Assembly: GCA_963758915.1 (NCBI GenBank)
Contig: CAVWXH010000011.1
Span: 1 to 26,328 of the forward strand
From: an uncultured Methanomicrobiales archaeon
GTDB lineage: Archaea; Halobacteriota; Methanomicrobia; Methanomicrobiales; Methanospirillaceae
Length of the DNA stretch: 26,328 nt
Direction of reading: 5' to 3'
Shown here: positions 5,940 to 26,271 of the stretch, in pieces
Layout: each line of letters starts with the position of its first letter
How positions within the stretch are numbered: the stretch's first letter is position 1
Program-made: the position numbers and the translations under genes
Notes under the pieces: model-generated
What the model was told of the DNA's origin: nothing
Databases searched by the model: none
The model's input: only the letters and a program-made list of their open reading frames with translations

Positions 5940-5972
5940 AGGTCAGGGTATTCGCAAAGATACGGGGAGTTG

Positions 5973-6004
5973 TGGGCTTTGAAAAGCCCATTCTCATTTC
6001 TTTT
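5973..6004 (+). terminator. Hairpin plus T-tract after lon
   Basis: TGGGCTTT-GA-AAAGCCCA followed by ttctcatttctttt. It sits inside an outer repeat TCAGGGTA (5943-5950) / TACCCTGA (6017-6024). Confidence 0.55.
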
Positions 6005-6114
6005 ATTAAAGTCTTGTACCCTGATAAACCTGAAACGAAGGTGTTTGAGTCATGGTTCATTTAACAACCAGAACGGCAGAAAAAACAATACTCTCACCGG
6101 ATAATTAGATCCCT

Positions 6115-7473
6115 GTGATCTCCCTCGTTGAGCCGGAACGGGTCCGGGTACTCAATAATGCCCCCGTACGCACCGGGGACTATGTGCTGTACTGGATGCA
6201 GTCCTCGCACCGGACAGAACAAAATCCGGCACTTGTGTATGCAATCGAACGGGCTGACCATGCAAACCTCCCGCTGGTCGTTTATTTCGGGCTCTGGCAG
6301 ACCTACCCGGAGGCGAACCTCCGTCATTTCCAGTTCATGCTGGAAGGGCTTGTGGACGTCGCACATTCCCTGGAATCCCTGGGGATCAGGTTTGTGCTGA
6401 GGATTGAACCCCCGGACGAGGGAGTCCTTTCCCTCGCGAAAAACGCCGCATTAGTAATAGCAGACCGGGGATACCTCCGGCAGCAGCAGGTATGGTACCA
6501 TGATGTTGCCGAACGGTGCACGTGCCCTCTCGTGCAGGTTGAGGGAAACGTTGTCGTGCCGGTAGAGGTGGCATCCCAGAAAGAGGAATATTCAGCCGCC
6601 ACGTTCCGCCGTAAGGTCACCTACCATGTGGACAGGTTCCTGCACCATGTTGAAACGGACAGACCGGAGCGTTCTTCTCTTGCCCTTGACATTCCCACGC
6701 TTGCCGGGGAAACACCCGGTGCACTACTCTCACAGCTCACCATCGACCGGTCGGTCCCTGCATCGGATTCCTACAAGGGTGGGACAACGGAAGCGAACCG
6801 GAGGTTTCTGCAATTTCTCGACAAACGACTCGGGGGATATGGTGATAACCGCAATGATCCCGGTGGGGAGGGGAGTTCGGACATGAGCCCCTACCTCCAT
6901 TTTGGCCAGGTATCGCCGGTTACCCTCGCAGTCCTCGCACAGGAACAGGGCGGGAACGGTACTCCGGCCTTTCTCGAACAACTGATTGTGCGCCGGGAGC
7001 TTGCCGTGAACTTTGTCCGGTACAATGACCACTACGATTCATTCTCATCACTTCCTGCATGGGCACAGAAAACGCTGGCGCTTCACCAGGCAGATCTGCG
7101 GGAATATAGGTATTCTCTCGATGAACTGGAGCATGCTGCAACCCATGACCCGTACTGGAATGCAGCCCAGCAGGAGATGATGAAGACCGGTAAGATGCAG
7201 GGCTACATGAGGATGTACTGGGGCAAGAAGGTCCTCGAGTGGAGCAGAACCCCGGAGGAGGCATATTCGACCGCCCTGTATCTCAATAATAAATACGAGA
7301 TCGACGGCAGGGACCCGAACGGCTACGCCGGGGTTGCCTGGTGCTTTGGCAAACACGACCGCCCGTGGGGGGAGCGTCCGATCTTTGGCATGGTCCGGTA
7401 CATGAATGCGCAGGGACTGCGGCGTAAGTTTGACATGGACCGGTACCTCGAGAGTGTCAGGCAGGTACACTGA
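6115..7473 (+). CDS. phr: Class II CPD (deoxyribodipyrimidine) photolyase
   Basis: YVLYWMQ..R...N.AL, SDMSPYLHFGQVS, RRELAVNF, THDPYWNAAQ, GYMRMYWGKK, DGRDPNGYAG and FGMVRYMN are class II photolyase motifs. Confidence 0.95.
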   Translation: MISLVEPERVRVLNNAPVRTGDYVLYWMQSSHRTEQNPALVYAIERADHANLPLVVYFGLWQTYPEANLRHFQFMLEGLVDVAHSLESLGIRFVLRIEPPDEGVLSLAKNAALVIADRGYLRQQQVWYHDVAERCTCPLVQVEGNVVVPVEVASQKEEYSAATFRRKVTYHVDRFLHHVETDRPERSSLALDIPTLAGETPGALLSQLTIDRSVPASDSYKGGTTEANRRFLQFLDKRLGGYGDNRNDPGGEGSSDMSPYLHFGQVSPVTLAVLAQEQGGNGTPAFLEQLIVRRELAVNFVRYNDHYDSFSSLPAWAQKTLALHQADLREYRYSLDELEHAATHDPYWNAAQQEMMKTGKMQGYMRMYWGKKVLEWSRTPEEAYSTALYLNNKYEIDGRDPNGYAGVAWCFGKHDRPWGERPIFGMVRYMNAQGLRRKFDMDRYLESVRQVH

Positions 7474-7525
7474 GAAAGAGACTCACTGATAACCCTGGTC
7501 CGGACAAAAACGCGGGTATGTAATC

Positions 7526-8563
7526 TTATCCCTTATTTGAAGGCCCCGCGTTTTCCCGGGTGTCCGGTGCATTCCGGCTTTTCCAGACATCCCTGCCGCG
7601 GTCCGTGATATCTTCCGGCAGTTCCGCCAGCTCGATCGGGTACGGGGCAAAGAAGGTCTGGTTCAGGAGGGCTCGGCTCCTGGAACCTGATCACCCACGA
7701 ACGGAGCAGGTCGCGGGGTTCAGCAAGCGTTGCATGACCTTCCCTGTAGCGATCGATTAACCTGAGGCAGTACGCTTTTTCCTCGGCCGAAACCCGGTTG
7801 CTAAAATATCCCATGGTATGGTGGAGGACATTGATATTGTTCGTATATCGCGGGACCTGGGCAAGTGCAGCACAGAGCATCCGGCGGTACTCGAAAAACA
7901 GCTCGTCCGGTTGAGTCTTCGCCCGGGATGCAACAAGCCTTCCCATCTCACGCATCAGCTGCTGGTGACAGGCCATCAGCAGGTGCTTGTTCGCAGCGTG
8001 GAACTGCACCAGTGCTTCACGATCCTGTTGGCTTTCAATTGCCCGGAAGGCGGCGAGAGTAAAGATCCCGGTAAGGAAATGGTCACGGATCCGTGCATTG
8101 TTCAGGCGGAGCTCATCTTCAACAGGCAGTTCTGGAAAACCGTTTCAGCACCTCCCGGGCAAAAAAGCCGGCAGGTCTTCTCTATAGCCATGGATTTTTC
8201 TGCGGACGGGTATACACGAACGCCACTTGCACCGGATGTAGGAGAGCCGCCTTTCAGGATGAACCCGTCAACCGGGGGCAGGTCATCAAGGAACCGGGAG
8301 GCAAAACCGGTCATCTCACGGGTTACGTCGCGTCCGGTCGCAGGCTGGATAAGATGATCGACACCATCCATCCGCACGATCCTGACCGTTGCCCGCGGGA
8401 TGCCAAGACCTATCTCTACCTCGGGGCAGACAGGGATACAATCAGCAAAAGACTTGAGACGTGCCACGGTGGGGGATGGTATTTTTGAACCGTCATAACG
8501 GCACGGGTCAAACTCGATACAACGGCTGATAACAATGCGGGGACGCGGGTAATCTCGGGCCAT
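7526..8563 (-). CDS. DUF523-DUF1722 (YbgA/RudS-like) fusion protein, three +1 frameshifts near 8174, 8138 and 7671
   Basis: N-terminal SRCIEFDPCRYDG, CPEVEIGLGIPR, GFILKGGSP. Correcting three extra bases restores AGFFAREVLKRFPELPVEDELRL..RIRDHF, FHAANKHLLMA, NVLHHTMGYFS and LLNQTFFAPYPIEL, with the stop at 7526. Confidence 0.88.
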
Positions 8564-8669
8564 GGGGTATCACACTACATTTTTCAGTACCCTCAGGATG
8601 CTTATGAACACTTGGGTCTTCAAGTATCCTTATCATCCCCCTGAATTAAAATACTCATACGGAGAGCTG

Positions 8670-9155
8670 ATGATCAAAATGGACCCGTTAAAAATTCCCA
8701 GGATGCCAAAAGCTGAGTATGATGCCCTGATCGAACGCCAGTATGTATCAAGGATTTCGTTTGGCGCATGTGACCATCCCTACATAGCGCCATTCATGTA
8801 TGTCTTTGACAAGAAGTACCTCTATTTCCTTTCCACAAAATATGGCCGGAAGATAGACTATTTTAATGCAAACCCAAAGGTCTCTGTCGAAATTGAAGAG
8901 TACGCCCCTGACATGTCTGCCTTTACGTTTGTGAGCCTGCAGGGAACTATCGAGGAGGTGACGGACCCGGCACAGAAAAAGAAGGTACGCCAGCAGTTTG
9001 TTGACATGATTGCAAAAAACCGGCTTTCACCCCGCGTGCTCACGGCTCTTGGTCACAGCCCGGATGACAGTCCGGACGTTATTGTCCGTGAAGAGCGTTC
9101 GGCGGTCTGGAAACTGGTCGGCGTAAAGGATATTGTTGCCCTGAAAAACGGGTAA
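8670..9155 (+). CDS. Pyridoxamine 5'-phosphate oxidase-like / NimA-like flavin-binding split-barrel protein
   Basis: VSRISF....PYIAPFMYVFD...LYFLSTKYGRKIDYFNANPKVSVEIE. Start is 8670 or 8679 (GGAG upstream); the ORF-track start at 8562 overlaps the divergent gene. Confidence 0.85.
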   Translation: MIKMDPLKIPRMPKAEYDALIERQYVSRISFGACDHPYIAPFMYVFDKKYLYFLSTKYGRKIDYFNANPKVSVEIEEYAPDMSAFTFVSLQGTIEEVTDPAQKKKVRQQFVDMIAKNRLSPRVLTALGHSPDDSPDVIVREERSAVWKLVGVKDIVALKNG

Positions 9156-9356
9156 TCTCAAATTCTTTTTATTCGCCCTTTGTTGCACCGGTTACCGGGG
9201 GAAGCCAGAGGGATATGTGAATCCACCTATATATAGTTCAGTCCGGGACCAGGTACTGCTTCGGTGGAATCCCGGGATGAAAAATCCGACCCTTCCGGAG
9301 CGAAACATCCATAAAGACCCCGGGGAATATACCGCGTAGCTGGAGACGACACGATA

Positions 9357-9875
9357 ATGGCTGATACAATACCCTATGAAATCACCGGGAAAGAGGGAGA
9401 CATTGAATACAGGCACTACCCCGCAATGGTGCTTGCGACAGCAGACAGTCCCGGGAACGACAGCGGTTTCAACCTGCTTTTTGCCTACATCTCAGGCAAC
9501 AATAAAATCCGGAGTAAAATCCCGATGACCACTCCCGTCATAACCTCAGAAAAGATCCCGATGACTTCCCCTGTTGTATCAGATGCAGAATCAATGTCGT
9601 TTGTCATGCCCGCAGGAAAATCACGGGAGGAGGTCCCCGACCCGCTGGACAACAGGGTCAGGATCACAACAGTACCCGAACGGGAGATCGCGGTTATCCG
9701 TTTCCGGGGATATGCATCTCAACAAGACGTGGATGAAGCGGTTTCACGGCTGCAGGAAGGGCTGAAAAACGCTGGTATTACCGCTGTGGGCCAGCCGTTC
9801 CTGATGCGGTATAATCCACCGTGGACTCCCGGCTTTCTCCGGCGGAACGAGGTTGGGGTAGAGATCCGGCGTTAG
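9357..9875 (+). CDS. SOUL/HBP heme-binding family protein (no signal peptide)
   Basis: IEYRHYP, GFNLLFAYISGNN, KIPMTTPV, MSFVMP, PDPLDNRV, AVIRFRG, YNPPWTPGFLRRNEV. Confidence 0.92.
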   Translation: MADTIPYEITGKEGDIEYRHYPAMVLATADSPGNDSGFNLLFAYISGNNKIRSKIPMTTPVITSEKIPMTSPVVSDAESMSFVMPAGKSREEVPDPLDNRVRITTVPEREIAVIRFRGYASQQDVDEAVSRLQEGLKNAGITAVGQPFLMRYNPPWTPGFLRRNEVGVEIRR

Positions 9876-10137
9876 GTTAAATGGCCCTTGCAGCGGATCT
9901 CAATCCACCGGTCCGGGTACCTGGGACGGATGGCCGGGTCAAGGTAAGACAACGGTTCACCAGATTATATTATCATAGGAGAGGGTTCAGGAAAAAAGGG
10001 AGCAACACTCCTGCCCGGGCAGGATAATCAACAACCCCTTTGTGATACGATACGTAAGGGCCCATAATCAGAACTTTTTTTTATACAATACTGATTTGAC
10101 ATCCACATTTATTACCTGTGGAACCCCATTGGGCAGT

Positions 10138-10732
10138 ATGCGAAAAATCCTTCTGGTGTCGTCTGCCGTTATAATTATCCTGCTTCTGGCCCTTTTTGTG
10201 CTGGCCCAGCCTGCTACAGAAACAATCCCCTACACAGTCAAAGGGAATACCGGAGAGATCGAGTTCCGGCACTACCCCGCAATGGTGCTTGCTACCGTGG
10301 ACAGTCCCGGGAGCGATGCCGGTTTCAGCCCGCTCTTTGCCTATATCTCGGGCAGCAATAAAGCCCGGAGTAAAATCCCGATGACCGCACCGGTAATAAC
10401 CTCGGAAAAGATCCCGATGACTTCCCCTGTTGTTTCAGATGCAGCATCAATGTCGTTTGTCATGCCGGCAGGATACATCCAGGGATGAGGTTCCCGACCC
10501 GCTGGACAGCAGGGTACGGATCGTCACGGTTCCCGAACGGGATGTTGCAGTCATCCGCTTTTCAGGGGATGGCACCCAACAGGATGTGGATGCGAAAACA
10601 TCCCTGCTGCAGGAAGGACTGAAAAATGCCGGCATTAAGACGGTGGGCCAGCCATTCCTGATGCGGTACGATTCGCCCTGGACACCCGGATTCCTCCGGC
10701 GGAACGAGGTTGGGGTGGAGATTACTCGGTAA
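10138..10732 (+). CDS. SOUL/HBP heme-binding paralogue with N-terminal signal/anchor, one frameshift near 10475
   Basis: MRKILLVSSAVIIILLLALFVLAQPA followed by the same SOUL motifs. One extra base in GGA TAC ATC CAG GGA TGA separates it from ORF 10430..10732 (SRDEVPDPLDSRV...YDSPWTPGFLRRNEV). Confidence 0.88.
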
Positions 10733-10970
10733 TGTTACCCAGGCTGTTTCAATGGGATATCATCCAATCCGGCACGTTGCAGCCACATTTCCACGGGGCC
10801 CGGCCTGAACGCCGGTGCGGATTTGTGAATAACCAATAAATCAGACCTTTAATCTACCCGTTGATACCGGGCCCACCCAAATTTAAACACCGGTTTTGGT
10901 CCACGCGTGATAGCATGTTGAGGATGAGACAAAAAGACCGGACGACGAAGGGAGAAATTAAAAAAAAATC

Positions 10971-12919: not shown

Positions 12920-12940
12920 CAGCACTTTTTAGTGCTGGCA

Positions 12941-13035
12941 GATGTAAATCCGACGTGCTATTCTTGCACGGCCCATTCGTGGCTGGGGATTACGGGGAGT
13001 CAGCAGTGGCGGCTCTTTTCCCGGATTTACTGATC
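12941..13035 (+). ncRNA. Ribosomal protein S15 leader RNA (S15-Methanomicrobia-like motif)
   Basis: Closing stem GTAAATCCG (12944-12952) / CGGATTTAC (13022-13030) encloses hairpins CGTGC-TATTCTT-GCACG, CCA-TTCG-TGG and GAGTC...GGCTC. It lies just upstream of the SD GAGGTG and the rps15 ATG. Confidence 0.75.
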
Positions 13036-13054: not shown

Positions 13055-13513
13055 ATGGCAAGAATGTATGCGCGAACGAGAGGTCAGTCAGGATCGGTCA
13101 GGCCATACCGGAAAGAAGCACCGGAATGGTCCAACACCGATGTGACCGCGATCGAGAAGGTCATTGTTGACCTGAGTAAAGAGGGTGTATCAACCGCCCG
13201 GATCGGCCTGGTCCTCCGTGACCGCTATGGTGTCCCTGACGTGAAACTCGCTACAGGGAAGCGGATTGGACAGATTGTAAAGGAAAAAGGGCTTGAAGGA
13301 GAGATCCCGGAAGATTTAAAGAACCTTATTGTTAAGGCACTCGGGCTCCGAAAGCACCTTGCAGAGAATAAGAAAGATGTGCACAACAAGCGGCAGATGC
13401 AGCTGACAGAATCAAAAGTCCGGAGACTTGTCAAGTATTATGTAAGCTCCGGTAAGCTGGCGAAGGGCTGGGTATACAAGCCCGAGACCGCAGAAATCCT
13501 GCTTTCAAGATAA
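13055..13513 (+). CDS. rps15: 30S ribosomal protein S15 (uS15, S13e-like)
   Basis: MARMYARTRGQSGS.RP, IGLVLRDRYGVPDVK, IPEDLKNLI, KKDVHNKR, ESKVRRLVKYY. Confidence 0.98.
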   Translation: MARMYARTRGQSGSVRPYRKEAPEWSNTDVTAIEKVIVDLSKEGVSTARIGLVLRDRYGVPDVKLATGKRIGQIVKEKGLEGEIPEDLKNLIVKALGLRKHLAENKKDVHNKRQMQLTESKVRRLVKYYVSSGKLAKGWVYKPETAEILLSR

Positions 13514-16487: not shown

Positions 16488-17090
16488 ATGGCAAGAAAGA
16501 AACAGATTGGAAGAAGAGTTGAAGGCTGGAAAGCCAAGAGCTGGTACAAGGTGTACACACCCGACCAGCTCGGAAAATACTACATTGGGGATACCATTGC
16601 GAACGACCCGGAGAGCGTGGTCGGGCGTGTCATGCAGACCACCCTCGGTGAGATCATCAATGACTACTCACGGCAGAACGTGAAAATGCGGTTCCGTATC
16701 GCAAACGTTGCAGGCGATTCGGCCTACACCGAGTTTATCGGCCATGAGGTCACCAAGGACTACCTGAGGTCCCTCGTCAAGCGGCGGACCACCCGTATCG
16801 ATTCCCACATCCCGGTAACGACCAAGGACGGAAAGAAGCTCCTCCTGACCGTCACCTGCTACACGCTCACCAATGCAAACCTCTCGCAGACTCACGCGAT
16901 CAGGGGCATGATGACGAAGTACGTGCTCGAACAGGTTAAGGGCGGGGACCTCAACGCGTTTGTGAACGCGATTATTACCGGCGAGATCTCAAAAGAACTC
17001 TTCAAGATGTTGAAACTGGTCTTCCCGATCCGGCGTGTCGAAGTCATCAAGTCAAAAGTGGAAGTACCTTCGTTATCAGTCGCAACATAA
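16488..17090 (+). CDS. rps3ae: 30S ribosomal protein S3Ae (eS1)
   Basis: SD AGGTGA then ATG at 16488. WKAKSWYKVYTP, GRVMQTTLGE, DYLRSLVKRRTTRID, FPIRRVEVIKSKV. Confidence 0.97.
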   Translation: MARKKQIGRRVEGWKAKSWYKVYTPDQLGKYYIGDTIANDPESVVGRVMQTTLGEIINDYSRQNVKMRFRIANVAGDSAYTEFIGHEVTKDYLRSLVKRRTTRIDSHIPVTTKDGKKLLLTVTCYTLTNANLSQTHAIRGMMTKYVLEQVKGGDLNAFVNAIITGEISKELFKMLKLVFPIRRVEVIKSKVEVPSLSVAT

Positions 17091-17108
17091 GGGTTACCAT
17101 ACCCTGAC

Positions 17109-17144
17109 CAGGGATTTATTCCCTGCAACGGTTTTTCTTATTTT
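17109..17144 (+). terminator. Putative terminator of the ribosomal operon
   Basis: CAGGGA-TTTAT-TCCCTG hairpin followed by gtttttcttatttt. Confidence 0.5.
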
Positions 17145-17176
17145 CGTGTTCAGGATACCTTTGAACGGTATTTTAA

Positions 17177-17282
17177 CCTGCGTTCCCGGTATCGGCACGT
17201 CAGGCGTAAAGGGGGACATGTTCACCGGACCGTAATCCCCCCAAGGTCCGTGAACATCATTACGTCAGTCACCCGGAACAGG
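17177..17282. repeat. About 106-nt imperfect inverted repeat (long hairpin)
   Basis: Nested complementary arms: CCTG/CAGG, GTTCCCGGT/ACCCGGAAC (one mismatch), GGCGTAA/TTACGTC (one G-U), ATGTTCAC/GTGAACAT and GGACC/GGTCC. Confidence 0.65.
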
Positions 17283-17376
17283 AGAAGGTCTTTTTTAAAA
17301 AAAAAGGTTTTAGAAAAAGTTTTTGTCCCTGCGATAAACTTTTAAATTCCTTCTTATAACAGGATTGTGGGAAGCC

Positions 17377-17856
17377 ATGCAATATATTATCCAGGTTCTG
17401 ATCCTGCTGTTCGGGTTTATATTTGGTTATTTCATGTACGAATTATACCGGTACCGTGCAGGAGGTGTGATCGCCATCCCGATCCTCGTGCTGTACACCT
17501 TTGAATCCCCGATCGCACTCCCTATATTTATCTATTCGGTGGCTATCTGTTACCTGATCGGGTTCATTATCACCGAGAAGACGCTGATTTACGGGAGACG
17601 GCTCCTTTACCTCTACCTGACCACGTCACTCCTGGTTACCAGTTTTTCGTTTTTTTTCGTCCTCTATTACCTGAACATGGACCTCCTGACGATTACCATC
17701 GGTGCAATATTCCCGGGGCTCATTGCCTATAATATCTCCCGTGAAGCATATTCCTTCAAGGCAGGGTTAAATACAGTCCTGATGATGATCTGGCATTTCT
17801 TTATCGTCGTAATGTTCGGTGTTATTATCTTACTGGCATCAGGGTGGAGGCCTTGA
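17377..17856 (+). CDS. capC: Poly-gamma-glutamate biosynthesis membrane protein CapC/PgsC
   Basis: About 159-aa highly hydrophobic protein with YRAGGVIAIPILVLY, LIYGRRLLY and IGAIFPGLIAYNISRE, matching CapC motifs (LYGRR; G..VPGLIA). TATA-like TTTTAAA at about 17340. Confidence 0.88.
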   Translation: MQYIIQVLILLFGFIFGYFMYELYRYRAGGVIAIPILVLYTFESPIALPIFIYSVAICYLIGFIITEKTLIYGRRLLYLYLTTSLLVTSFSFFFVLYYLNMDLLTITIGAIFPGLIAYNISREAYSFKAGLNTVLMMIWHFFIVVMFGVIILLASGWRP

Positions 17857-18979
17857 AGGACTTTATCCCCCGGATCGATGGCCGGATACGGATGGTCCGG
17901 GATTTCAAGGAAAAGATCGATAAGGTCCCACTCAGGATCGTCGTGGAGGGTACCGGGGGAAGTCCTCAACCGTTATGATGGTTGCAGAGATGTTACGGGG
18001 ACTGGACAGGGTCACCCTCGCCAAGGTGACAGGTGAGAACCCGATTGTAATGTTTGGTGGCGTCGTAATGCCACTGTACCGGGAGAATAATTCTGTCCTC
18101 CTTGATTACGAGATCATTCCCGAAGTCCTGAATTTTAATTTTGACTCGCTTGTGTTTGAAAACCAGGCAATATCACCCTACACGATGCAGTATTTTCACA
18201 AGGTGATCAACCCGACCCACGTGATTATCCCGAATATCAGGCTCGACCATGTCGAGAGCCTTGGGGAGGACCTTGTTGAAATAACAGAAAATTTTGCCCA
18301 CAATTACTACGTGCACAGGTCAAAGGTTGAAGTCTATTATATTGAGCCCATTGAATCTGTTCACCGGGTCGTGTATCCCATCCTGAAGGAAGCCGCACAA
18401 GACCTCCCGGACATTGTGACCCTCCATGATGTCCCCGTCCCGGAACAATACCAGTACCTCCCGGGGGCAGAGAACATCCTGATCAGTACCTACTTTATCA
18501 GACACTATTTTGGTGTGGATATCGATGAAACGAGATACCTCCGGAGGCTCGAGGGAAACCTCACCATCAGGACCGGCCCTGACGGGATCCGTTATATCAG
18601 CCTCGCGAAAGTGAACGATCCGGCCTCGTTCCTATCAATGATGAAATATTTTCTGGCCAGAACCGAGGATGATGTAATCCTCGTGGGATATTTCCGGAGG
18701 GACCGGATCGGGAGAAATTACCTCTTTGAGACGATAATGCCGGAAGTAGAAAAATTATACGGGCACCGGATACGGAAGATCTGGCTTGCAGGGCACGCCT
18801 CAAAACATGCATTTGACAGGTTTTCTCCTGAAACCCAGGAAAAAACGTATTACTGGGTCGGCAATGAAAGCATTGACTCAATCATCGCATACGCTAAAAA
18901 GCATAATTACATCCTCATCACGATGGTTAACCGCGTGAATAAATTCATGGATGAACTCTATGAAAAAATGGTTGTGTGA
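17853..18979 (+). CDS. capB: Poly-gamma-glutamate synthase CapB/PgsB (Mur ligase family), one missing base near 17955
   Basis: TTG at 17853 overlaps the capC stop and reads MKDFIPRIDGRIRMVRDFKEKIDKVPLRIVVEGT. Adding one base gives the P-loop GT(R)GKSST, in frame with ORF 17975 (AKVTG, VFENQAISP, PNIRLDHVESLG, AKVNDPAS, RRDRIGR), all recognisable PgsB motifs. Confidence 0.87.
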
Positions 18980-18982
18980 GTA

Positions 18983-19735
18983 ATGCAACTCAGGGGCAGT
19001 CATGTAGCATGTATCGTTATGCTCCTTGCCCTTTTCGTTTCAGCGATATCATCCGGGTGTGCACAGCTTGATGCCCGGCTGGAAGATGTGTACCTTACCC
19101 TTACGACCAGCCGGGAGCCCTGTACCGCGGGTAGCAGCCTGCCGCACCAGGGCAGTGTGCTGCTGCTCCGTGAAGCAGAACGGCAACTTGGCCGTATGAA
19201 CGCGTCACGTTACTCCCATGAAACCTATATCGATGAAACGAACGGGACCTACGAGTACGATTGTTCTGGTTTTGTCGGGTATGCCCTCTCCAGGGCCGAC
19301 CCGTGTGCAATGAGTGTCCTCCTGCATAAACGGCCTGATGCAGGGAATTTTTATTATCATTTCATCCAGTTCGGGCCTTCACCGGGCAGCGGTGGTTGGA
19401 TGAGCGTTTCGACACCAACCGAGCTTCGCCCCGGGGATATCATTGTCTGGCTGAAACCAGATGAATCAGATGCAAAGAGCACCGGCCATATCATGATTGT
19501 TGCAGGAACCCCCGGGCCAAACCCGGAACGTGATGGTGAGATCCTCGTCAGGGTAATCGATTCAACAACGTCTCCCCATGCAGATGATACAAGAAAACCC
19601 GGCCAGACCGGTCTTGGAAAAGGGACAATTGGCATAATGACAGGACCGTCAGGGCACCCGTCCGGATATTACTGGCGGGGAGGGGTGTCTTCGGCCCTGC
19701 AGGAGACGAAAATGGTATTTGCACGGATTGCATGA
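18983..19735 (+). CDS. NlpC/P60-like cysteine hydrolase lipoprotein
   Basis: Lipobox-like ISSGC, catalytic YEYDCSGFVGY, LRPGDIIVW, TGHIMIV, then VIDST. Starts 3 nt after the capB stop. Confidence 0.78.
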   Translation: MQLRGSHVACIVMLLALFVSAISSGCAQLDARLEDVYLTLTTSREPCTAGSSLPHQGSVLLLREAERQLGRMNASRYSHETYIDETNGTYEYDCSGFVGYALSRADPCAMSVLLHKRPDAGNFYYHFIQFGPSPGSGGWMSVSTPTELRPGDIIVWLKPDESDAKSTGHIMIVAGTPGPNPERDGEILVRVIDSTTSPHADDTRKPGQTGLGKGTIGIMTGPSGHPSGYYWRGGVSSALQETKMVFARIA

Positions 19736-19796
19736 GTGAAAAACGGGTAAAGATACCTTTAAATCATAACTGGTATAGTTCAGAGGTACGGCTATC

Positions 19797-21947
19797 ATGG
19801 TAAAGGATGTCCAGGTAATACTGGTTGCATTTGTCATATCGATCGTGTTTTTTTCAGCACTGGCCCTCGTGTTCGGCGACGGGAAAGAGCCCGTGGTCCC
19901 AGGCCATGGAACCCCCGTAACACCAGCTCCTGGTATCACCGTAACACCGCCGGCACAGGTAACCCCTGCAGGACCTTTACAAGAGGTCCGGCTGGTAACG
20001 ACCACGGATTTTTATAATACAGGCCTGCTCCAGTACCTGAAACCGCTGTTCGACGAACAGTACCATGCTGACCTCCGGGTGATTGCCAGTGACGCGAACG
20101 GGGCGGTTGCAACAGCGAAACGGGGTGATGCCGATATCCTGCTGCTGAATGATCCAATCCGCGAACGGGCATTTCTTGAAGAAGGGTACGGGGTGAACCA
20201 CAGGACCTTTGCCAGTAATTCCTTCATCATCATCGGGCCTTCAGATGATCCTGCCGGTATCAGGGGTATGAATGCGTCGGGAGCCCTGCAGAGGATTTTT
20301 GAAGCGGGAAGCGCCGGAGAACCAGGGGTCCTCTTCATATCACGCGGTGATGGTTCAGAAATTCACCGGGTTGAGCTGGCAGCCTGGAATAGTGGGGGAT
20401 CCACGCCAGGAAAAATGGCATTTTCTCCGGCCTTCTGGTACATTGAGGTGGATAAAGGGGCAGATGAGACCATAAAAATTGCCGGCGACCTGCAGGCATA
20501 TACCATTGCCGACAACGCCAGTTACCATGGATACCAGGCAGACCTGACCCTCGAACCGCTTGTTTCGGGAGGGGGACTGCTGTTCAACGGTTACAGCACC
20601 ATTTCTGTCTTCAATGACCTGCAACCGGTTGAACGGATCAGAATGGCCAATAATTTCACTAATTTTATGCTATCCACGGAGATACAGGACGAGATTGGAA
20701 GCTATGGCAAAGGGAAATACGGGATACCGCTCTTTATACCGACGGTAGGGAATACAATTCCAGTACCTGAGGACTACATGACGAACCTCACTGCCCCGGC
20801 TGTTGCGGTCAGGCCGTTAAAAGTACTTTACCCCTCGACAAATCCCTCAATTTTTGGAAAGTTCCGGAAAAAATTTGAGCAGCTCCATCCCCTGACCGAC
20901 GTGCAGCTCTGGCCGGGGAGCAATGCAGATAACACGGATAAGGTCAGCCGGTATGGGGGCTTCAGCGACCTGCTTGCGACCACCAGCGAAAACCTCGTCA
21001 TCGATGACCTCTACCCGGATGATGTGACGTTCCTTGTCACCTACGCGAAAAATGGCATGGTGATCGCCTACACCAATAAGAGCAGGGGTGCAGCGATCAT
21101 TAACGAGACCAACTGGTACAGGGTGCTTGAAACCGACCGGGTAACGTATGCCACAAGTGACCCCAACGAAGAACCGGTCGGTTACCGGGCGTATATGGTC
21201 ATCGAACTCGCTGAACGGTATTACGGCGATCCCGGGATCTTTGACCGCCTGGTCAGTTCCCATAGCAACATCACGGAAGTCACGTACCGGGACAGTTACC
21301 GCGGCCGCTGGACGGTTAATGTCACCAATACGTCCCCGGACAACCGGAAACTGTTCATTTCGAGACCTGGGGGGATATCAACAACACAGATGCTTGATGA
21401 TGGCAGGGTTGATTACATCTTTACCTACCAGAGCCTGGCCACGAGGGAGGGGTTTAAGTATATTGCACTCCCGCCGGAGATCGACCTGTCGGACCCCAAC
21501 ATGTCCGGGCGTTACGAACTCGTGCGTGTTATCCGGGCGCCGGAAACAATCGTAGTCAGGGCAACGGGCACGACTATTACAACCTCCGGAGATGAGGGTT
21601 ACCCGGGTACAATTGCCGGGTTTACCGGTATTACATCAGGGGCAGGGGAGGATATTCTCGTGACAGACATGGCTGCAGCAAATCCTGCTGTTTCGTTACG
21701 TTCGGGATCTCTCTGGATACTGCGATCAACAGGGCCAAGGACTGTCATCGGCAGGCCATTGACCTACGGTATTACGATACCGGCAAGTGCCCGCAACACG
21801 GAAGGGGCTGCCGAGTTTATCAACCTGGTCATCAGTGGGCAGGGGCAGGCAATTACCAGTTCGGAAGGGCAGGTACCAATCGTTCCTGCCATCGCGTACG
21901 GATATGGGATCCCGTATTTCCTGCTGCCAAAACTGCAATTCGTCTGA
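19797..21947 (+). CDS. Membrane-anchored fusion of TupA-like and WtpA/ModA-like substrate-binding domains, with divergent ligand motifs
   Basis: N-terminal TM helix and Pro/Thr linker. TupA-like half: VTTTDFYNTGLLQYL, KRGDADILL, NSFIIIGPSDDPAGI, FISRGD. WtpA-like half: YAKNGMVIAYT.KS, INETNWY.VL, SDPNEEPVGYR, VDYIFTYQSLA, LPPEIDLSD, LTYGITIP. Confidence 0.85.
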   Translation: MVKDVQVILVAFVISIVFFSALALVFGDGKEPVVPGHGTPVTPAPGITVTPPAQVTPAGPLQEVRLVTTTDFYNTGLLQYLKPLFDEQYHADLRVIASDANGAVATAKRGDADILLLNDPIRERAFLEEGYGVNHRTFASNSFIIIGPSDDPAGIRGMNASGALQRIFEAGSAGEPGVLFISRGDGSEIHRVELAAWNSGGSTPGKMAFSPAFWYIEVDKGADETIKIAGDLQAYTIADNASYHGYQADLTLEPLVSGGGLLFNGYSTISVFNDLQPVERIRMANNFTNFMLSTEIQDEIGSYGKGKYGIPLFIPTVGNTIPVPEDYMTNLTAPAVAVRPLKVLYPSTNPSIFGKFRKKFEQLHPLTDVQLWPGSNADNTDKVSRYGGFSDLLATTSENLVIDDLYPDDVTFLVTYAKNGMVIAYTNKSRGAAIINETNWYRVLETDRVTYATSDPNEEPVGYRAYMVIELAERYYGDPGIFDRLVSSHSNITEVTYRDSYRGRWTVNVTNTSPDNRKLFISRPGGISTTQMLDDGRVDYIFTYQSLATREGFKYIALPPEIDLSDPNMSGRYELVRVIRAPETIVVRATGTTITTSGDEGYPGTIAGFTGITSGAGEDILVTDMAAANPAVSLRSGSLWILRSTGPRTVIGRPLTYGITIPASARNTEGAAEFINLVISGQGQAITSSEGQVPIVPAIAYGYGIPYFLLPKLQFV

Positions 21948-22234
21948 TAATTCTCTTTTTTCGAGTTACACATCAACACCCGCCTGCCCCGGCTGGGAAA
22001 TCAATGTCGTGTATTAGCGCCCCGTGGGTTTTTCCGGGGCTGTTACCTGGCCTCCGGAAATAGTTATTGGATACCCGTTTGGCAGCACGGCAGAATTACC
22101 AGGCTAACACGACCGAGACACTTTTAGTTCACGGGGAATATACTGATGAAGAGGGAACACAGGTGTACACGGGTCACCGGTGACTCCGGTTAAGAGAGAG
22201 CAGGATGTTGCAGGAAGGACCAGGTGACGGATAA

Positions 22235-22616
22235 ATGCCTCACAGGAAAGTCCGGGTACTGGTTGTTGAGGATGACGGGAAGTTACGCGAAGTTCTTCAG
22301 GCTTTTTATCAAGAAATACGGCTACCACCTGTGCGGTGTGGCCGAATCCGGGGAAGAGGCCCTTGAACTTATCAAGGAAACCTCCCCGAACCTTGTCTTT
22401 ATCGATATCGTGCTGAAAGGGAAGATGACCGGGATCGGCCTTGCACGCCATATCAACCGGGAAGTCAGAATCCCCTTCATCTATATAACGGGACACTCGG
22501 ATGCACACATTATTGAAGAAGTGATCCATACGCGCCCCAGTGCATTCATCCTGAAGCCTTTTGTCGGCGAGGAGCTGAAAGTCGCAGTGGAAATTGCAAT
22601 ACGGAAGAAAACCTGA
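22235..22616 (+). CDS. Stand-alone response regulator receiver, one extra T near 22305
   Basis: Reconstructed MPHRKVRVLVVEDDGKLREVLQAFIKKYGYHLCG...PNLVFIDIVLKG...IYITGH...FILKPF, with acidic pocket, phospho-Asp, Thr and Lys present. Confidence 0.88.
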
Positions 22617-22733
22617 TTTTTTCCCCATATTATTGCTAATATGAGCCCCCTGTTAATTCAGACCTAAAAGCCGGGGGGTAATTCATGAAATGAGAATTTT
22701 TCATGGCAGGTTACATTTTGTTATCTGGATAAA

Positions 22734-22777
22734 ATTTTTGGCTTTTCTCCCGGTCCGGAGAGATAGAAGCCAAAAAT
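22734..22777. repeat. Strong inverted repeat between receiver genes
   Basis: ATTTTTGGCTT / AAGCCAAAAAT (11 bp, perfect) with an inner TCTCC-CGGTCC-GGAGA stem. Confidence 0.7.
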
Positions 22778-22921
22778 GAACCCAGCATTAATGTTCCCGG
22801 AATTTGAGGTATATAACCTGATTAAGATGAATATTTCTAAAATAAAAATATTTAAATAAAAAAAATTTAATTAGATCAATGCTAATACCCTCTTAAAGAA
22901 GACTGGGGGGTTTCGGGATTA

Positions 22922-23290
22922 ATGGCGGATACGAAAAATACTCGTTGTAGATAGTCTTGGAGAGAGTGAACGTCTCACATCCTTTATCAAAAAGTTCGGG
23001 AACCATCTTTGCGGTGTGGCGGAATGCGGGGAAGATGCCATGAAACTGATCGGTGAGACGAAGCCGGACCTGCTTTTTATCGACATGGCATTGAAAGATC
23101 AGATGAACTGTACGGGTCTTGCATGCCATATCAACGAGAATAAGATCCCGTTCATCTTTATGACCGAACATGCAGATGCACACATTATTGGAGATATTAC
23201 GGGTACCCGTCCCAATGCATTCCTGATGAGGCCGTTCGGGAAGAAGAAATCCGTCTCGCAGTAGAGATCGCAATGCAAAAAAAATCCTGA
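22922..23290 (+). CDS. Degenerate receiver protein, paralogue of 22235-22616, frameshifts near 22934 and 23240
   Basis: Reconstructed MA..KILVVDSLGESERLTSFIKKFGNHLCGVAECGEDAMKLI.ETKPDLLFIDM...FIFMTEHADAHII...AFLMRPFG.EEIRLAVEIAMQKKS, collinear with the preceding receiver. Confidence 0.78.
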
Positions 23291-23522
23291 TTCATCCTGG
23301 ATATGGATGATTCCGTGGCTTTTTCTCTATCCATCACGCACCGCTTTCTTTTATCTACCAGGTCAGAGATGTGAAACCAAACATTGTATTCGGTTATTCA
23401 GTCTCGAAACAACAAGGCAATGGAACTTTTCACAGACCAGGATTTTACAATGAGAATGATTATCATGTATCAGTTTTCATTACCAATTATAGATACAATG
23501 GAAAAGAGGTTTACAGAGTTCA

Positions 23523-23892
23523 ATGGCTGAAACAAGAATTCTCGTGGTGGATGATGAAGAAAATATCCTGACTATTTTCCGCCTGGCACTTGAGAGCAGG
23601 GGCTACAAGGTAGATACCGCTGGCCACCGCCGCTGAAGCCCTCGAAAAGGCAAAGTCTACTACCTACCAGGTCTGTCTCCTTGATATCAATCTCCCTGAT
23701 ATGCATGGTACAGAACTGTTAAAATTGATGCATCAGATCGATCCGTCTATGAAAAAACTGATGGTCACCGGGGACTGGGCACCAAGGGATGTTGAACTTG
23801 CAAGGAAAAACGGGGCTGATGAGTTCGTTGCAAAACCCCTTAGCAAGGCGGACCTTATCGCAGTCGTTGAAAGTGTGTTGACGCCCACCTGA
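23523..23892 (+). CDS. Stand-alone CheY-like receiver, one extra G near 23622
   Basis: Reconstructed MAETRILVVDDEENILTIFRLALESRGYKVDTAATAAEAL...CLLDINLPDMHG...MVTG...GADEFVAKPL. Confidence 0.88.
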
Positions 23893-24017: not shown

Positions 24018-26271
24018 ATGACAATGAAACCCTGCAGGCGGAATTATTACCTCGCCATCGCATTGCTGGTATTACTCACCGTCATCGTCGCTCCTTATTA
24101 TTGTCCTCATGGCAAACGCCGATGTCGTGACAAAGGAAAATATGGCACGGCAACAGGTTTTAAAAGAGCCCGTCAACCTCCGGGGAACCATCATAAGCGA
24201 AAATGGAAACCCGGTAAAGGGGGCGACGGTATCCCTGCAGGATAAGACAGCGGTCACGACCGGAAGCGGTTCATTTACCCTTGACGGGATAACCCGCCAG
24301 AACAGCCTGATGGTGATCGATGCCCCGGGTTTCAGGAGAGAGTTCATCCCGGTCCACCTTTTCCTTCCCGTTTCGGTCGGCGGGGTAGAGACTGGACCCG
24401 GTCTATATGATAGAGGCCGACCCCGGAGAGGTCAGGTTCCTTTTCGGGGGCGACACCCATTTCGGACGCCGCTATATTGACCCCATGGAAATTACCCCGA
24501 GAGACCAGCTGCCCCCTGATAACAAAAGTGCCCTTATCAGTGTTTCAGACCCCGGACCTGGTACACGCGAGGTCCTCAGGTACGTCCGGCCATTCTTCCA
24601 GGAGGCCGATTTCAGCAGTGTGAACCTTGAATCACCGGTCACCCTGAACGTGTCAACACCACACCTGACAAAAGACTATGTCTTAATGACCCTGCCGGGT
24701 TCATTGCCTGCATTACAATGGGCGGGCATATCCTATGTTTCGCTCGGGAACAACCATGTCTACGATTACCGTGAGCAGGGACTTTCAGATACCATCTCCT
24801 CCTTACAGGCTGCAGGCATCGCCTATAGTGGTGCAGGGCCCAATGCTACTGAGGCATTCAAAGCATATCGTGTCGTTTTGAACGGTACCCCGTATGCAAT
24901 CCTCGCGATGAATTCCATCGATGGCATTGAACATCCCATCAATTATGTTGCTGATGACCGAAAAGGCGGGTCGGCAAACCTGAAAGATACCACGATGGTG
25001 ACCTCTGCCATTGGGCGTGAACTGGATGAGGGCTTTGTTCCGATCGTACAGGTCCACGGGGGCGATGAATATGTCTATGAACCCCCGGATTACATCAGCG
25101 GACGGCTGGACATGGTGACGGATGCCGGTGCGGGGCTGGTGGTATCAGAACACTCCCATATTGCAGAGGGGGTCGGGATCAGGAATGGGGTTGTAGTTAT
25201 AGAAGGTCTTGGCAACCTCGCCTTTGATGCCGAACGCCACGAGACGATGCTCGGCCTCCTTGCACGGGTTGACATGAACGGGAAGGAGATCCGGTCTGTC
25301 CGGCTCATCCCGGTCTACATCGGCAATTTCACGCCACGCCTGGTTTCCGGGGGGGTCGCTGACATACTCCTGCGCCGGGTTGGGGAGTTTTCAAAGGACT
25401 CACCGTACCCGGTCTACCCCTATAACGGACAGGGGTGGGTAGCCCTCGGGGAAAAACAGGTCAGCGAGAAACGCGATCGTACTGCCAGGGTGAACATTAC
25501 CATACCCGAATCCGGTTCAACGGTGCTTTGACCTCCCCAGACTGGCCCATAGCAGTGAATCCCTGGCAGGTATCAGGATAATGTTACCGGCAGCCAGGTC
25601 CGCTTGGGCGTGACCTGATGATCTACGGGGACTTTGAAGACTGGAACGTTGATGATACGGTGGGGGTGGCTGACCAGTGGGATACTTCAGCGGGCTCAGT
25701 GGAACTTGCAGTTACCCAGCCGTACAGCGGGACCCAGAACCTCATGAGTATCCGCCAGTTCGGTAACACCAAAGACTCCGTGATCCCGTTCAGGAACAGG
25801 ATCCGCGTCATGGGGGATGCCCGAAACCAGGCTAACCCAATAAAAATCTCACGTTTATCGGGTATATCCGGGGAAGGGATGCCGGACCCGTGAAGATTGT
25901 TTCGAAATACCTCGCGAGCGAAAATCCGGTAGATGGTGGACCGGGGATGACATTTGGCGAGGAAAAATCATGGCCCGTTCCCGGGGGGTACCTTCCCGTG
26001 GCAGCAGTATGTCGCCGATATCCATATGCCACCCGATGACCCCGGAGTCCCGAGAAACCCCGTAACGGACCCAAGGGCACTCCAGGTCTTTATCCACCAT
26101 TCGGCATCGCCGAAAACCACAAGCATCGCTGAGTTCGATGATTTCGCCATTATTTCCTGGGAGGAGACGGTCAACAGTCAACGGGGTGCAACACTTAGGA
26201 CCCCTCATGCCAGGGATTTCCTCCGGATTAACGGGACACCAGGTACCCACCAGCTCGACCCTGACGTTTGA
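24018..26271 (+). CDS. capA: Large CapA/PgsA family (PGA_cap metallophosphatase-like) protein with TM anchor, beta-sandwich domain and C-terminal extension; multiple frameshifts
   Basis: TM segment (24018), carboxypeptidase-regulatory-like domain (GTIISENGNPVKGATV...T.GSGSFTL), CapA motifs GGDTHFGR, VNLESP, SLGNNHVYDY, AYSGAG, VHGGDEY, SEHSH, GLGNLAFD, then a C-terminal region (YGDFEDW...GTFPWQQY). Breaks near 24093, 24390, 25528, 25575-25610, 25838 and 25965. The true stop is uncertain (26271 or about 26298). Confidence 0.83.

Follow-up and report, generated by a model that had tools for sequence, protein, structure and literature searches.

What does a cysteine peptidase of the NlpC/P60 type do in a methanogen that has neither murein nor pseudomurein? 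The question is raised by the gene at positions 18983..19735 (plus strand) of a 26,328-nucleotide (nt) stretch of DNA from an uncultured Methanomicrobiales archaeon (contig CAVWXH010000011.1 of assembly GCA_963758915.1; hereafter, the window), which begins 3 nt after an open reading frame (ORF) resembling capB, the gene for the Mur-ligase-type subunit of polyglutamate synthase. The best single explanation that we can offer, held tentatively and just short of an even balance, is that the predicted product is a PgdS-like, membrane-tethered enzyme that processes polyglutamate. We favor this role because the protein appears to be tethered, is linked to the genes for CapB, CapC and CapA, occurs in a host without murein or pseudomurein, and has a fold that is known to cut both wall peptides and polyglutamate.

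The ORF is intact, with no frame break, and encodes 250 amino acids (aa). Only the three bases GTA separate its ATG at 18983 from the TGA (18977-18979) of the upstream ORF, so that the gene cannot begin farther upstream. Residues 1-26 (18983..19060) comprise a signal peptide predicted from hydropathy and sequence, with a charged n-region (R4), a hydrophobic stretch (maximum Kyte-Doolittle value 2.95, residues 10-20) and a lipobox-like ISSGC that ends in Cys26 (codon 19058-19060); residues 27-56 form a linker containing Cys47, and residues 57-250 constitute the catalytic domain. The candidate nucleophile is Cys94 in the motif YDCSGFV (19262..19264), to which conservation, the alignment with MepS, MepH and NlpC, and the structural model all point; the candidate general base is His169 in STGHIMIV (19487..19489), for which conservation, the MepS alignment and the model agree; and Asp193 in VIDST (19559..19561) is a candidate third polar residue, judging from conservation and its strand in the model. 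The lipobox SGC, the Cys of DCSGFV, the His of TGHIMIV, the downstream Asp and the 3-nt gap, from which the original prediction of an NlpC/P60 lipoprotein coupled to capB was derived, are all found where it had placed them. A lipobox consensus for archaea is given in PMC12462473; the window protein deviates from it in having Ser at position -3, not Leu, Val or Ile. In the same source, archaeol lipidation of lipobox proteins via AliA and AliB is shown for Haloferax volcanii, and Cys26 of the window protein would probably be modified in a comparable way.

The curated Pfam gathering cut-offs for NLPC_P60 (PF00877) and CHAP (PF05257) are not reached by the protein: the best match is CHAP with 21.3 bits (cut-off 26; E 4e-4), followed by NLPC_P60 (13.9 bits; cut-off 23) and Amidase_5 (13.2 bits; cut-off 21), and no relevant family was found in NCBIfam. 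Weak Pfam matches (E ≤ 0.05) recur among 36 members of the family, with CHAP detected in 25, NLPC_P60 in 10 and Amidase_5 in six, and some distant members exceed the curated cut-offs, namely P0100 and P0074 for NLPC_P60 (29.3 and 25.6 bits, respectively, compared to 23) and P0047 for CHAP (35.4 bits compared to 26). A search of the PDB chains with the single protein sequence yielded no match at E ≤ 10, and profile searches yielded marginal NlpC/P60 matches (E 0.05-0.3); in such profile searches, residues 189-245 also matched ubiquitin-like proteins weakly (E 0.1-0.3), which was treated as chance. When a family profile of 128 sequences was aligned, using hhalign, to E. coli MepS, MepH and NlpC (extracted from NC_000913.3), the similarity was detected with a probability of 87.9% (E 3.2e-6, 87 columns), with DCSG aligned to DCSG and the PGD...GH strands, including the strand of the catalytic His, aligned to GDLV...H; specifically, PGDIIVW (residues 150-156) followed by TGH169 corresponds to GDLVLF...H of MepS. 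A low-confidence greedy alignment places VIDST, with Asp193, on a different MepS strand, and the alignment with the CHAP amidase domain of E. coli Gss (Gsp amidase) is weak (probability 5%, E 0.008).

An AlphaFold2 model built on the 128-sequence alignment (mean pLDDT 90.9, pTM 0.81, with means of 89-99 for 10-residue blocks over residues 61-250) consists of a single catalytic module in which Cys94 opens a helix (94-105), a strand follows at 153-157, His169 lies in the strand 168-173, Asp193 lies in the next strand (186-195), and three more strands (210-249) form a C-terminal beta subdomain specific to the family. Nearly all matches obtained with this model in a Foldseek search of the PDB are NlpC/P60 and CHAP domains, with probabilities of 0.9-1.0 and a modest best E of 3.1e-4. 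Normalized by the target, the TM scores range from 0.54 to 0.64 (7v6u, 0.64; CwlO (23tz), 0.63; LytE, 0.62; Spr, 0.60; Acd24020 is also among the matches); normalized by the query, they are 0.24-0.37, which is due to the N-terminal helix and the extra C-terminal part of the protein. Look-alikes in the ESM Atlas are mostly unnamed clusters, along with some NlpC/P60, CHAP and DUF1175 proteins at 0.90-0.94; these are leads only, consistent with the fold, and DUF1175 is not among the Pfam matches of the window protein.

The nucleophile motif, its position at the start of the helix and the order of Cys94 before His169 fit the canonical, non-permuted branch of the superfamily as it is delineated in PMC7387801. 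The protein is thus predicted to adopt the papain-like NlpC/P60/CHAP fold, as a real although divergent member of this group, with Asp193 as a candidate for the third catalytic residue in place of His. The earlier assignment to NlpC/P60 holds for the fold and for the register of Cys and His, on which hhalign, AlphaFold2 and Foldseek agree, and fails at every Pfam cut-off; the papain-like arrangement, with the Cys at the start of a helix and the His on a strand, is seen in the predicted structure, which also matches CwlO, Spr and LytE. By its sequence features, the protein can be described as a genuine exported cysteine peptidase of the NlpC/P60 superfamily, from an unnamed family, that is probably catalytically active.

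This family is large, mostly bacterial and unnamed. The window protein has 46 homologues at E ≤ 1e-3, the best of which is 98% identical over a protein of 250 aa (E 7.6e-164). A profile of 36 sequences, consisting of the window protein and 35 of the 46 homologues (the close relatives P0007, P0010, P0012, P0018, P0021, P0024 and P0026 and the fragments P0031, P0033, P0037 and P0040 were left out), retrieved 2029 cluster representatives at E ≤ 1e-3, 1377 at E ≤ 1e-10 and 510 at E ≤ 1e-30. Of 188 aligned sequences, 187 have Cys94, 186 have His169 and 186 have Asp193; those that lack one of these residues are the fragments P0031, P0037 and P0040. In the same 188 sequences and in the 128-row alignment, Y77, H79, D93, S95, W139, G151, D152, W156, H199, D202, R204 and G210 are also nearly invariant. 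Given these homologues and this conservation, the features seen in the sequence are far beyond chance. The bacterial member P0047 (652 aa) contains three tandem family domains with the Cys lost in copies 1 and 2 and DCSG retained in copy 3, a layout of three modules with one active that is also described for PgdS (PMC5880399). Domain fusions offered no clue to the substrate, given that 15 of the 22 longer members contain no other Pfam domain and the rest contain NlpC/P60, CHAP or Amidase_6. Two plasmid matches, both cyanobacterial and annotated as hypothetical, occur in uninformative contexts; the copy on a Nostoc plasmid is a 'hypothetical protein' in RefSeq.

Within the family, the short archaeal forms stand out by their N-terminal region. 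A lipobox pattern ends the hydrophobic stretch in 18 short archaeal homologues among the 46 listed (P0001-P0013, P0015, P0016, P0023, P0029 and P0037), and Cys26, Cys47 and Cys108 co-occur in exactly 20 of the 188 sequences, every one a short Methanomicrobiales-type form; Cys47 is never found without Cys108. This pair of cysteines (codons 19121-19123 and 19304-19306 in the window), specific to the short lipobox forms, may form a disulfide or a metal site by which the linker is held against the catalytic domain. In place of the lipobox, the long forms (296-380 aa) have a signal-peptidase site of the ALA-DQV type and a linker of about 120 residues. Accordingly conserved in the short archaeal forms, the lipobox agrees with the single-domain, membrane-tethered architecture that had been proposed originally, as does the presence of one catalytic module in the model.

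In a careful tree of 44 rows (the window protein, nine loci, and P0001-P0038 minus five rows that were fragments or aberrant; one locus, L006, was left out), 21 short lipobox forms make up one side of a single branch (support 100/99), with the long forms just outside. In a quick tree of the same rows, the window protein and its homologue from a Methanoregula sp. metagenome-assembled genome (MAG; locus L001), to which it is 66% identical, fall into different sub-branches of this group. A quick unrooted tree of the window protein and 38 homologue loci, obtained by scanning one genome per species, grouped the four Methanomicrobiales rows (SH-aLRT 99) and joined them to Myxococcota (97). In the latter tree, the Methanotrichaceae homologue (L031) and that of Smithella (L028) form a distant branch (support 99), suggesting that a further transfer occurred independently between partners that share a habitat.

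The genomic context of the window gene extends well beyond capB: a complete capC/capB/capA set surrounds it. The capC gene (17377..17856, plus strand), which encodes a PgsC-like membrane subunit, matches Caps_synth_CapC (PF14102, E 3.8e-19) and, below the cut-off, TIGR04011 (E 3e-9), and its product is 50% identical to L001 CapC over 159 aa; the list of ORFs gives a TTG start at 17365, and the L001 orthologue begins at a position that corresponds to the ATG at 17377. The capB-like gene (17844..18979, plus strand; GTG start at 17844) overlaps the end of capC by 13 nt, as in L001. Together with the 3-nt gap that precedes the peptidase gene, this overlap suggests that capC, capB and the peptidase gene are located on one transcript. 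The capA gene (24019..26271, plus strand), which lies 4.3 kb downstream of the peptidase gene and is broken into at least six frame pieces, encodes PGA_cap (PF09587, E 1.7e-43, on 24407-25531), CarboxypepD_reg (on 24109-24480) and a long C-terminal region, and is similar to the 753-aa CapA of L001 in three tblastn segments with up to 65% identity. Between the peptidase gene and capA, three single-domain response regulators are encoded on the plus strand (about 22200-22616, 22930-23280 and 23520-23892), as read from the DNA and from Response_reg matches on ORF pieces.

Cap genes were sought around the 38 homologues by tblastn, with the window capC and capB and the L001 CapB, CapC and CapA as queries and 2.1-20.7 kb of DNA per locus, and by Pfam scans of 272 ORFs at most 4.5 kb from the match (112, 137 and 23 ORFs at thresholds of 1e-5, 1e-8 and 1e-6, respectively). 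Matches in tblastn along with Pfam CapC and PGA_cap domains were found in L001 alone, which is, apart from the window, the sole Methanoregula-type locus with sufficient surrounding DNA. This locus encodes, in its own coordinates, capC (5850-6329), capB (4591-5862) and, directly after capB, a response regulator (4136-4585) on the minus strand, and capA (7224-9485) and the peptidase (9992-10741) on the plus strand. The regulator is 70.6% identical to the first regulator of the window (22302-22607) and 46.6% identical to 22932-23237. Thus, the two genomes share the set of capC, capB, regulator, capA and peptidase genes and differ in gene order, strand and flanks. In L001, two galaxin-like genes, one for a Cys-rich repeat protein (6471-7211) and one a small ORF (9539-9811), both on the plus strand, flank capA; they have no counterpart in the window. 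Equal sizes of the source sequences (26527, 3710, 4267 and 2914) were tried as a proxy for co-location and kept only as a weak hint, since the case of size 2072 is contradicted: this locus, L002, for which only 2.1 kb of DNA is available, has no capC match.

The description of the upstream neighbor as capB can be kept only in part. It is the right kind of gene, as the N-terminus of the ORF 17975..18979 matches PgsB (TIGR04012; E 2.1e-10), yet the score is weak (39.9 bits, compared to a cut-off of 222.7) and the gene is broken by a frameshift of 1 nt inside the P-loop GTRGKSS (approximately nt 17950-17960), where frame +3 reads VEGTGGSPQPL followed by a stop, frame +2 reads G(Y)RGKSSTV, and L001 reads VEGTRGKSSTV. 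The intact L001 CapB reaches E 5e-25 and 88 bits against the same model, also below the cut-off of 222.7 bits, and an intact relative of the window gene product (P0204, 378 aa) is 94.8% identical to it. The relatives of this CapB form some 39 Methanomicrobiales-type clusters, two of which carry the NCBI names Methanoculleus sp. and Methanomicrobiaceae; these are followed by Mur-ligase proteins of Korarchaeota, and bacterial PgsB appears only at E of about 1e-9. Because the relatives of CapB are archaeal and the nearest labeled relatives of the peptidase are from Myxococcota, the peptidase appears to have been recruited into the island as opposed to being co-inherited with it.

Polyglutamate in archaea has been described for haloarchaea (PMC3815933), and a pangenomic survey reports CapB in Halobacteria, a few Methanosarcinales and Korarchaeota, with Methanomicrobiales not named in the relevant passage (PMC11915815). 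The same survey confines pseudomurein to Methanobacteriales and Methanopyrales. A literature search returned nothing relevant on polyglutamate genes in Methanoregula, Methanoculleus or Methanomicrobiales in general, and no archaeal enzyme that degrades or anchors polyglutamate turned up. The obvious bacterial point of reference is PgdS (YwtD) of B. subtilis, an NlpC/P60 endo-gamma-glutamyl peptidase (PMC5880399), which has been proposed to stimulate the release of polyglutamate, with CapD proposed to anchor the polymer (PMC3815933); DL-endopeptidases such as LytE, LytF, CwlO and others also hydrolyze polyglutamate (PMC11075323). The superfamily, the D-C-S nucleophile motif and a conserved Tyr upstream of it are common to PgdS and the window protein (PMC5880399), as are export and a gene located with those for polyglutamate synthase. 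The gene pgdS presumably lies directly after pgsBCAE, an arrangement that a passage of PMC3815933 implies. In contrast to the single module with a C-terminal beta subdomain seen here, PgdS consists of three tandem NlpC/P60 modules, one of which has the full triad, and is released via a 32-residue signal peptide (PMC5880399), whereas the archaeal protein has a lipobox. The latter is not a close relative of PgdS, being below the Pfam NLPC_P60 cut-off, with PgdS compared by description only. In this reading, the window protein would work like PgdS, but its architecture and its position outside the curated NlpC/P60 and CHAP models separate it from the PgdS family.

The relationship to other enzymes of the superfamily is similarly mixed. 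With MepS/Spr, CwlO and LytE, the window protein shares the fold and the order of the Cys helix, the GD strand and the His strand, and MepS and NlpC are likewise lipoproteins, with the lipobox visible in the alignment. The similarity to these enzymes is found only profile-to-profile (E 3.2e-6), and the window protein differs from MepS-type enzymes in having about 12 extra residues after the His strand, ahead of the strand that follows, Asp193 as the candidate third residue where those enzymes have His, an extra C-terminal subdomain with the invariant H199, D202, R204 and G210, and a host without murein. The CHAP domains of LysK, LysGH15 and E. coli Gsp amidase are alike in that CHAP is the best Pfam match and such domains occupy top rows of the Foldseek output, and the Gsp amidase also has a TGH motif on the His strand; unlike them, the window protein scores 21.3 bits compared to the 26-bit cut-off, gives a weak hhalign match with Gsp and has no match in phage genomes. 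The CapD of the B. anthracis type resembles the window protein only in the proposed extracytoplasmic place of action on finished polyglutamate (PMC3815933): the fold and mechanism are unrelated, the peptidoglycan that serves as the acceptor for CapD is absent from the methanogen host, and no GGT-family (Ntn-hydrolase) domain was detected in the window protein by Pfam or NCBIfam at E ≤ 0.1.

Taken together, these comparisons allow the PgdS-like function to be spelled out as a scenario. One branch of a mainly bacterial family would have entered the Methanomicrobiales and, in the Methanoregula-type clade, would have gained the lipobox along with Cys47 and Cys108 and joined the capC-capB-capA island. 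The lipid on Cys26 would probably hold the enzyme at the outer face of the cytoplasmic membrane, where Cys94 and His169 would attack the gamma-glutamyl amide bonds of the chain extruded alongside by CapBCA. A gamma-glutamyl thioester would form and then be resolved by water; that the substrate is polyglutamate and that the reaction is hydrolysis, not transfer, we infer. Cutting of the polymer would set the chain length or free the polymer from the cell, as proposed for PgdS.

Several observations weigh against this scenario. Direct linkage to cap genes is observed in two loci, the window and L001. At 36 of the 38 homologue loci (35 bacterial ones and one from Methanotrichaceae), the tblastn and Pfam scans detected no cap gene; hence, co-occurrence with capBC, as anticipated in the original prediction, holds for the islands of the window and L001 and breaks down elsewhere. 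Given the absence of cap genes from the loci outside Methanomicrobiales, the family as a whole is not a polyglutamate family, and the link to this polymer is confined to the Methanoregula-type clade of short lipobox forms. Even in a Methanomicrobiales locus that encodes a long form (L003; 300 aa, lacking Cys47 and Cys108), the scans revealed no cap gene over 10 kb upstream, and the neighbors are eIF2B-family, DUF116 and transposase genes. The nearly invariant residues are identical in cap-linked and unlinked members, so that no change in the pocket marks a change of substrate. The activity of PgdS is aided by a positive surface patch (PMC5880399), in contrast to the acidic catalytic domain of the archaeal protein (pI 6.1 for the window protein and 4.9 for that of L001), and none of the residues that characterize the short clade (D106, C108, L114, Y125, T196 and M244) is basic; taken as a sign of polyanion binding, the charge of the whole domain is thus negative evidence, the domain being acidic and the clade-specific residues including no basic gain. 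If the frameshifts in the window are real, the intact peptidase gene would outlive the supposed synthase partner. Finally, in the 16 Planctomycetota loci, Peptidase_M10 is encoded just downstream in seven, a GH25 muramidase in three and a GH18-dockerin protein in three, with fatty-acid synthesis genes upstream in six; the hydrolase neighbors fit an ancestral cell-wall substrate.

These hydrolase neighbors lend weight to the view that the enzyme has kept its ancestral job as a peptidoglycan peptide hydrolase (a gamma-D-glutamyl-diamino acid endopeptidase or amidase), directed at neighboring bacteria or used for scavenging, with the adjacency to capB being meaningless; this is the main rival explanation, which we consider unlikely. 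In its favor, peptidoglycan endopeptidases, CHAP domains of endolysins and type VI amidase effectors give the best matches in structure, weak PHROG matches lead to tail-lysin and endolysin families, the Planctomycetota relatives adjoin GH25 muramidase, M10 and GH18 genes, and bacterial and archaeal members have the same conserved residues in the pocket. Modular peptidoglycan hydrolases with which archaea kill bacteria have been reported (PMC12352652), and a bacterial lysozyme family has reportedly been transferred into archaea (PMC4241558). On the other side, the window protein, unlike those modular enzymes (PMC12352652), has no peptidoglycan-binding domain recognizable by Pfam. Furthermore, the lipobox would tether it under the S-layer of the producer, poorly placed for foreign walls, the peptidase gene has stayed with the cap genes in two genomes although the island has been rearranged, and no match was found in 50,697 phage records. 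If the peptidoglycan hydrolase explanation is correct after all, a non-modular, membrane-bound type would be added to the archaeal antibacterial hydrolases.

The same linkage and location that argue for polymer cutting would also accommodate a transpeptidase that acts on polyglutamate, in which the Cys94 thioester is resolved by an amine of an S-layer protein, a lipid or a chain, so that the enzyme anchors the capsule and substitutes for CapD, as the original prediction had suggested. No GGT/CapD-type gene was detected by Pfam among the 27 ORFs of the window or the 13 ORFs of L001, a membrane tether suits anchoring, and the superfamily employs a covalent acyl-thioester, with some members being acyltransferases (PMC7387801). 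Such a role is nonetheless very improbable: the transferases of the superfamily that this source describes belong to the permuted LRAT/YiiX-like branch, with His before Cys (PMC7387801), whereas the order of Cys94 before His169 is typical of hydrolases, and the CapD family is unrelated. Of an acceptor for polyglutamate transfer in these archaea, we know none. It is also improbable, if not to the same degree, that the enzyme acts on some other substrate in the envelope or the environment, such as an isopeptide, a gamma-glutamyl compound or a secreted protein, or is a passenger in a rearranging and partly decayed island, next to capB through nothing more than a common history. That the G+C content of the cap island is lower than, and uneven compared to, that of its flanks, that these flanks differ between the window and L001, and that capB, capA and the regulators are frameshifted in the window would all be accounted for in this way, and the window and L001 come from related genomes, so that the two linked loci are not independent events. 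Against a passenger speaks the retention of the gene set through changes of order and strand, as well as the overlapping or abutting arrangement of capC, capB and the peptidase gene (13-nt overlap, 3-nt gap), which suggests one transcript.

The frame breaks that enter into this comparison are unevenly distributed. There is one in capB, at least five in capA and at least one in each of the three regulators, several of them in homopolymer runs; the genes for Lon, SerRS, the solute-binding protein described below, CapC and the peptidase contain none, although runs of at least four bases occur there with about the same frequency. Apart from the break in capB, all lie in the terminal part of the window (22.2-26.3 kb), a clustering that may reflect a poor local assembly or real decay of the island. 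The G+C content is 0.45-0.48 at 17001-19000 and 0.38-0.43 at 22501-23500, compared to 0.55-0.61 in the housekeeping flanks.

The remaining features of the window and of the homologue loci can be described briefly. Downstream of the peptidase gene, a 716-aa double solute-binding protein (19797..21947, plus strand; PBP_like_2 and SBP_bac_11, TupA-like and WtpA-like) combines an N-terminal membrane helix with fused domains of the tungstate/molybdate type, and no permease or ATPase gene adjoins it; it has no tblastn match in any of the 38 loci, L001 included, and is probably unrelated to the function of the island. A scan of 17000-22200 for sigma-70 promoters and terminators, a model unsuited to archaea, performed no better than on shuffled sequences, and a scan of the window detected no tRNA. 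Rfam identifies an S15-Methanomicrobia ribosomal-protein leader RNA (RF03137, 70.2 bits) at 12921-12993 on the plus strand, upstream of the S15 gene (13055-13513), and yields no other match in the window; like the closest relatives, this leader places the window in Methanomicrobia. Two ORFs cover only part of their profiles and may represent truncated or frameshifted genes: one of the VIT1 family at 128-499 (positions 3-101 of 214) and a second SOUL-domain ORF at 10042-10488 (positions 2-90 of 173). The Planctomycetota loci L011, L016, L017, L018, L019, L022, L023 and L025 show a conserved neighborhood, in which fatty-acid synthesis genes are followed by the NlpC/P60-like gene, then by Peptidase_M10 and, in some, by GH25 muramidase genes and a GH18-dockerin gene, and which looks like a secreted hydrolase cluster.

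With regard to the biology of these organisms, the proposition that emerges is that methanogens of the Methanoregula type make polyglutamate as a polymer of the envelope with a divergent CapBCA and process it with a bacterial endopeptidase that was captured, tethered and rebuilt with the Cys47/Cys108 pair; judging from the sequences, this is possible, although we would lean somewhat against it in this full form. If true, the window protein would be the first polyglutamate-processing enzyme of Archaea and the first to be characterized in an unnamed family that comprises over 2000 sequence clusters and whose proteins are now labeled 'hypothetical protein' in RefSeq. It would exemplify a peptidoglycan enzyme that crossed between domains and was then turned to a polymer of similar chemistry, would provide a compact, single-domain candidate for a polyglutamate depolymerase, and would open a way to study the control of a capsule-like polymer in a methanogen that lacks a wall.

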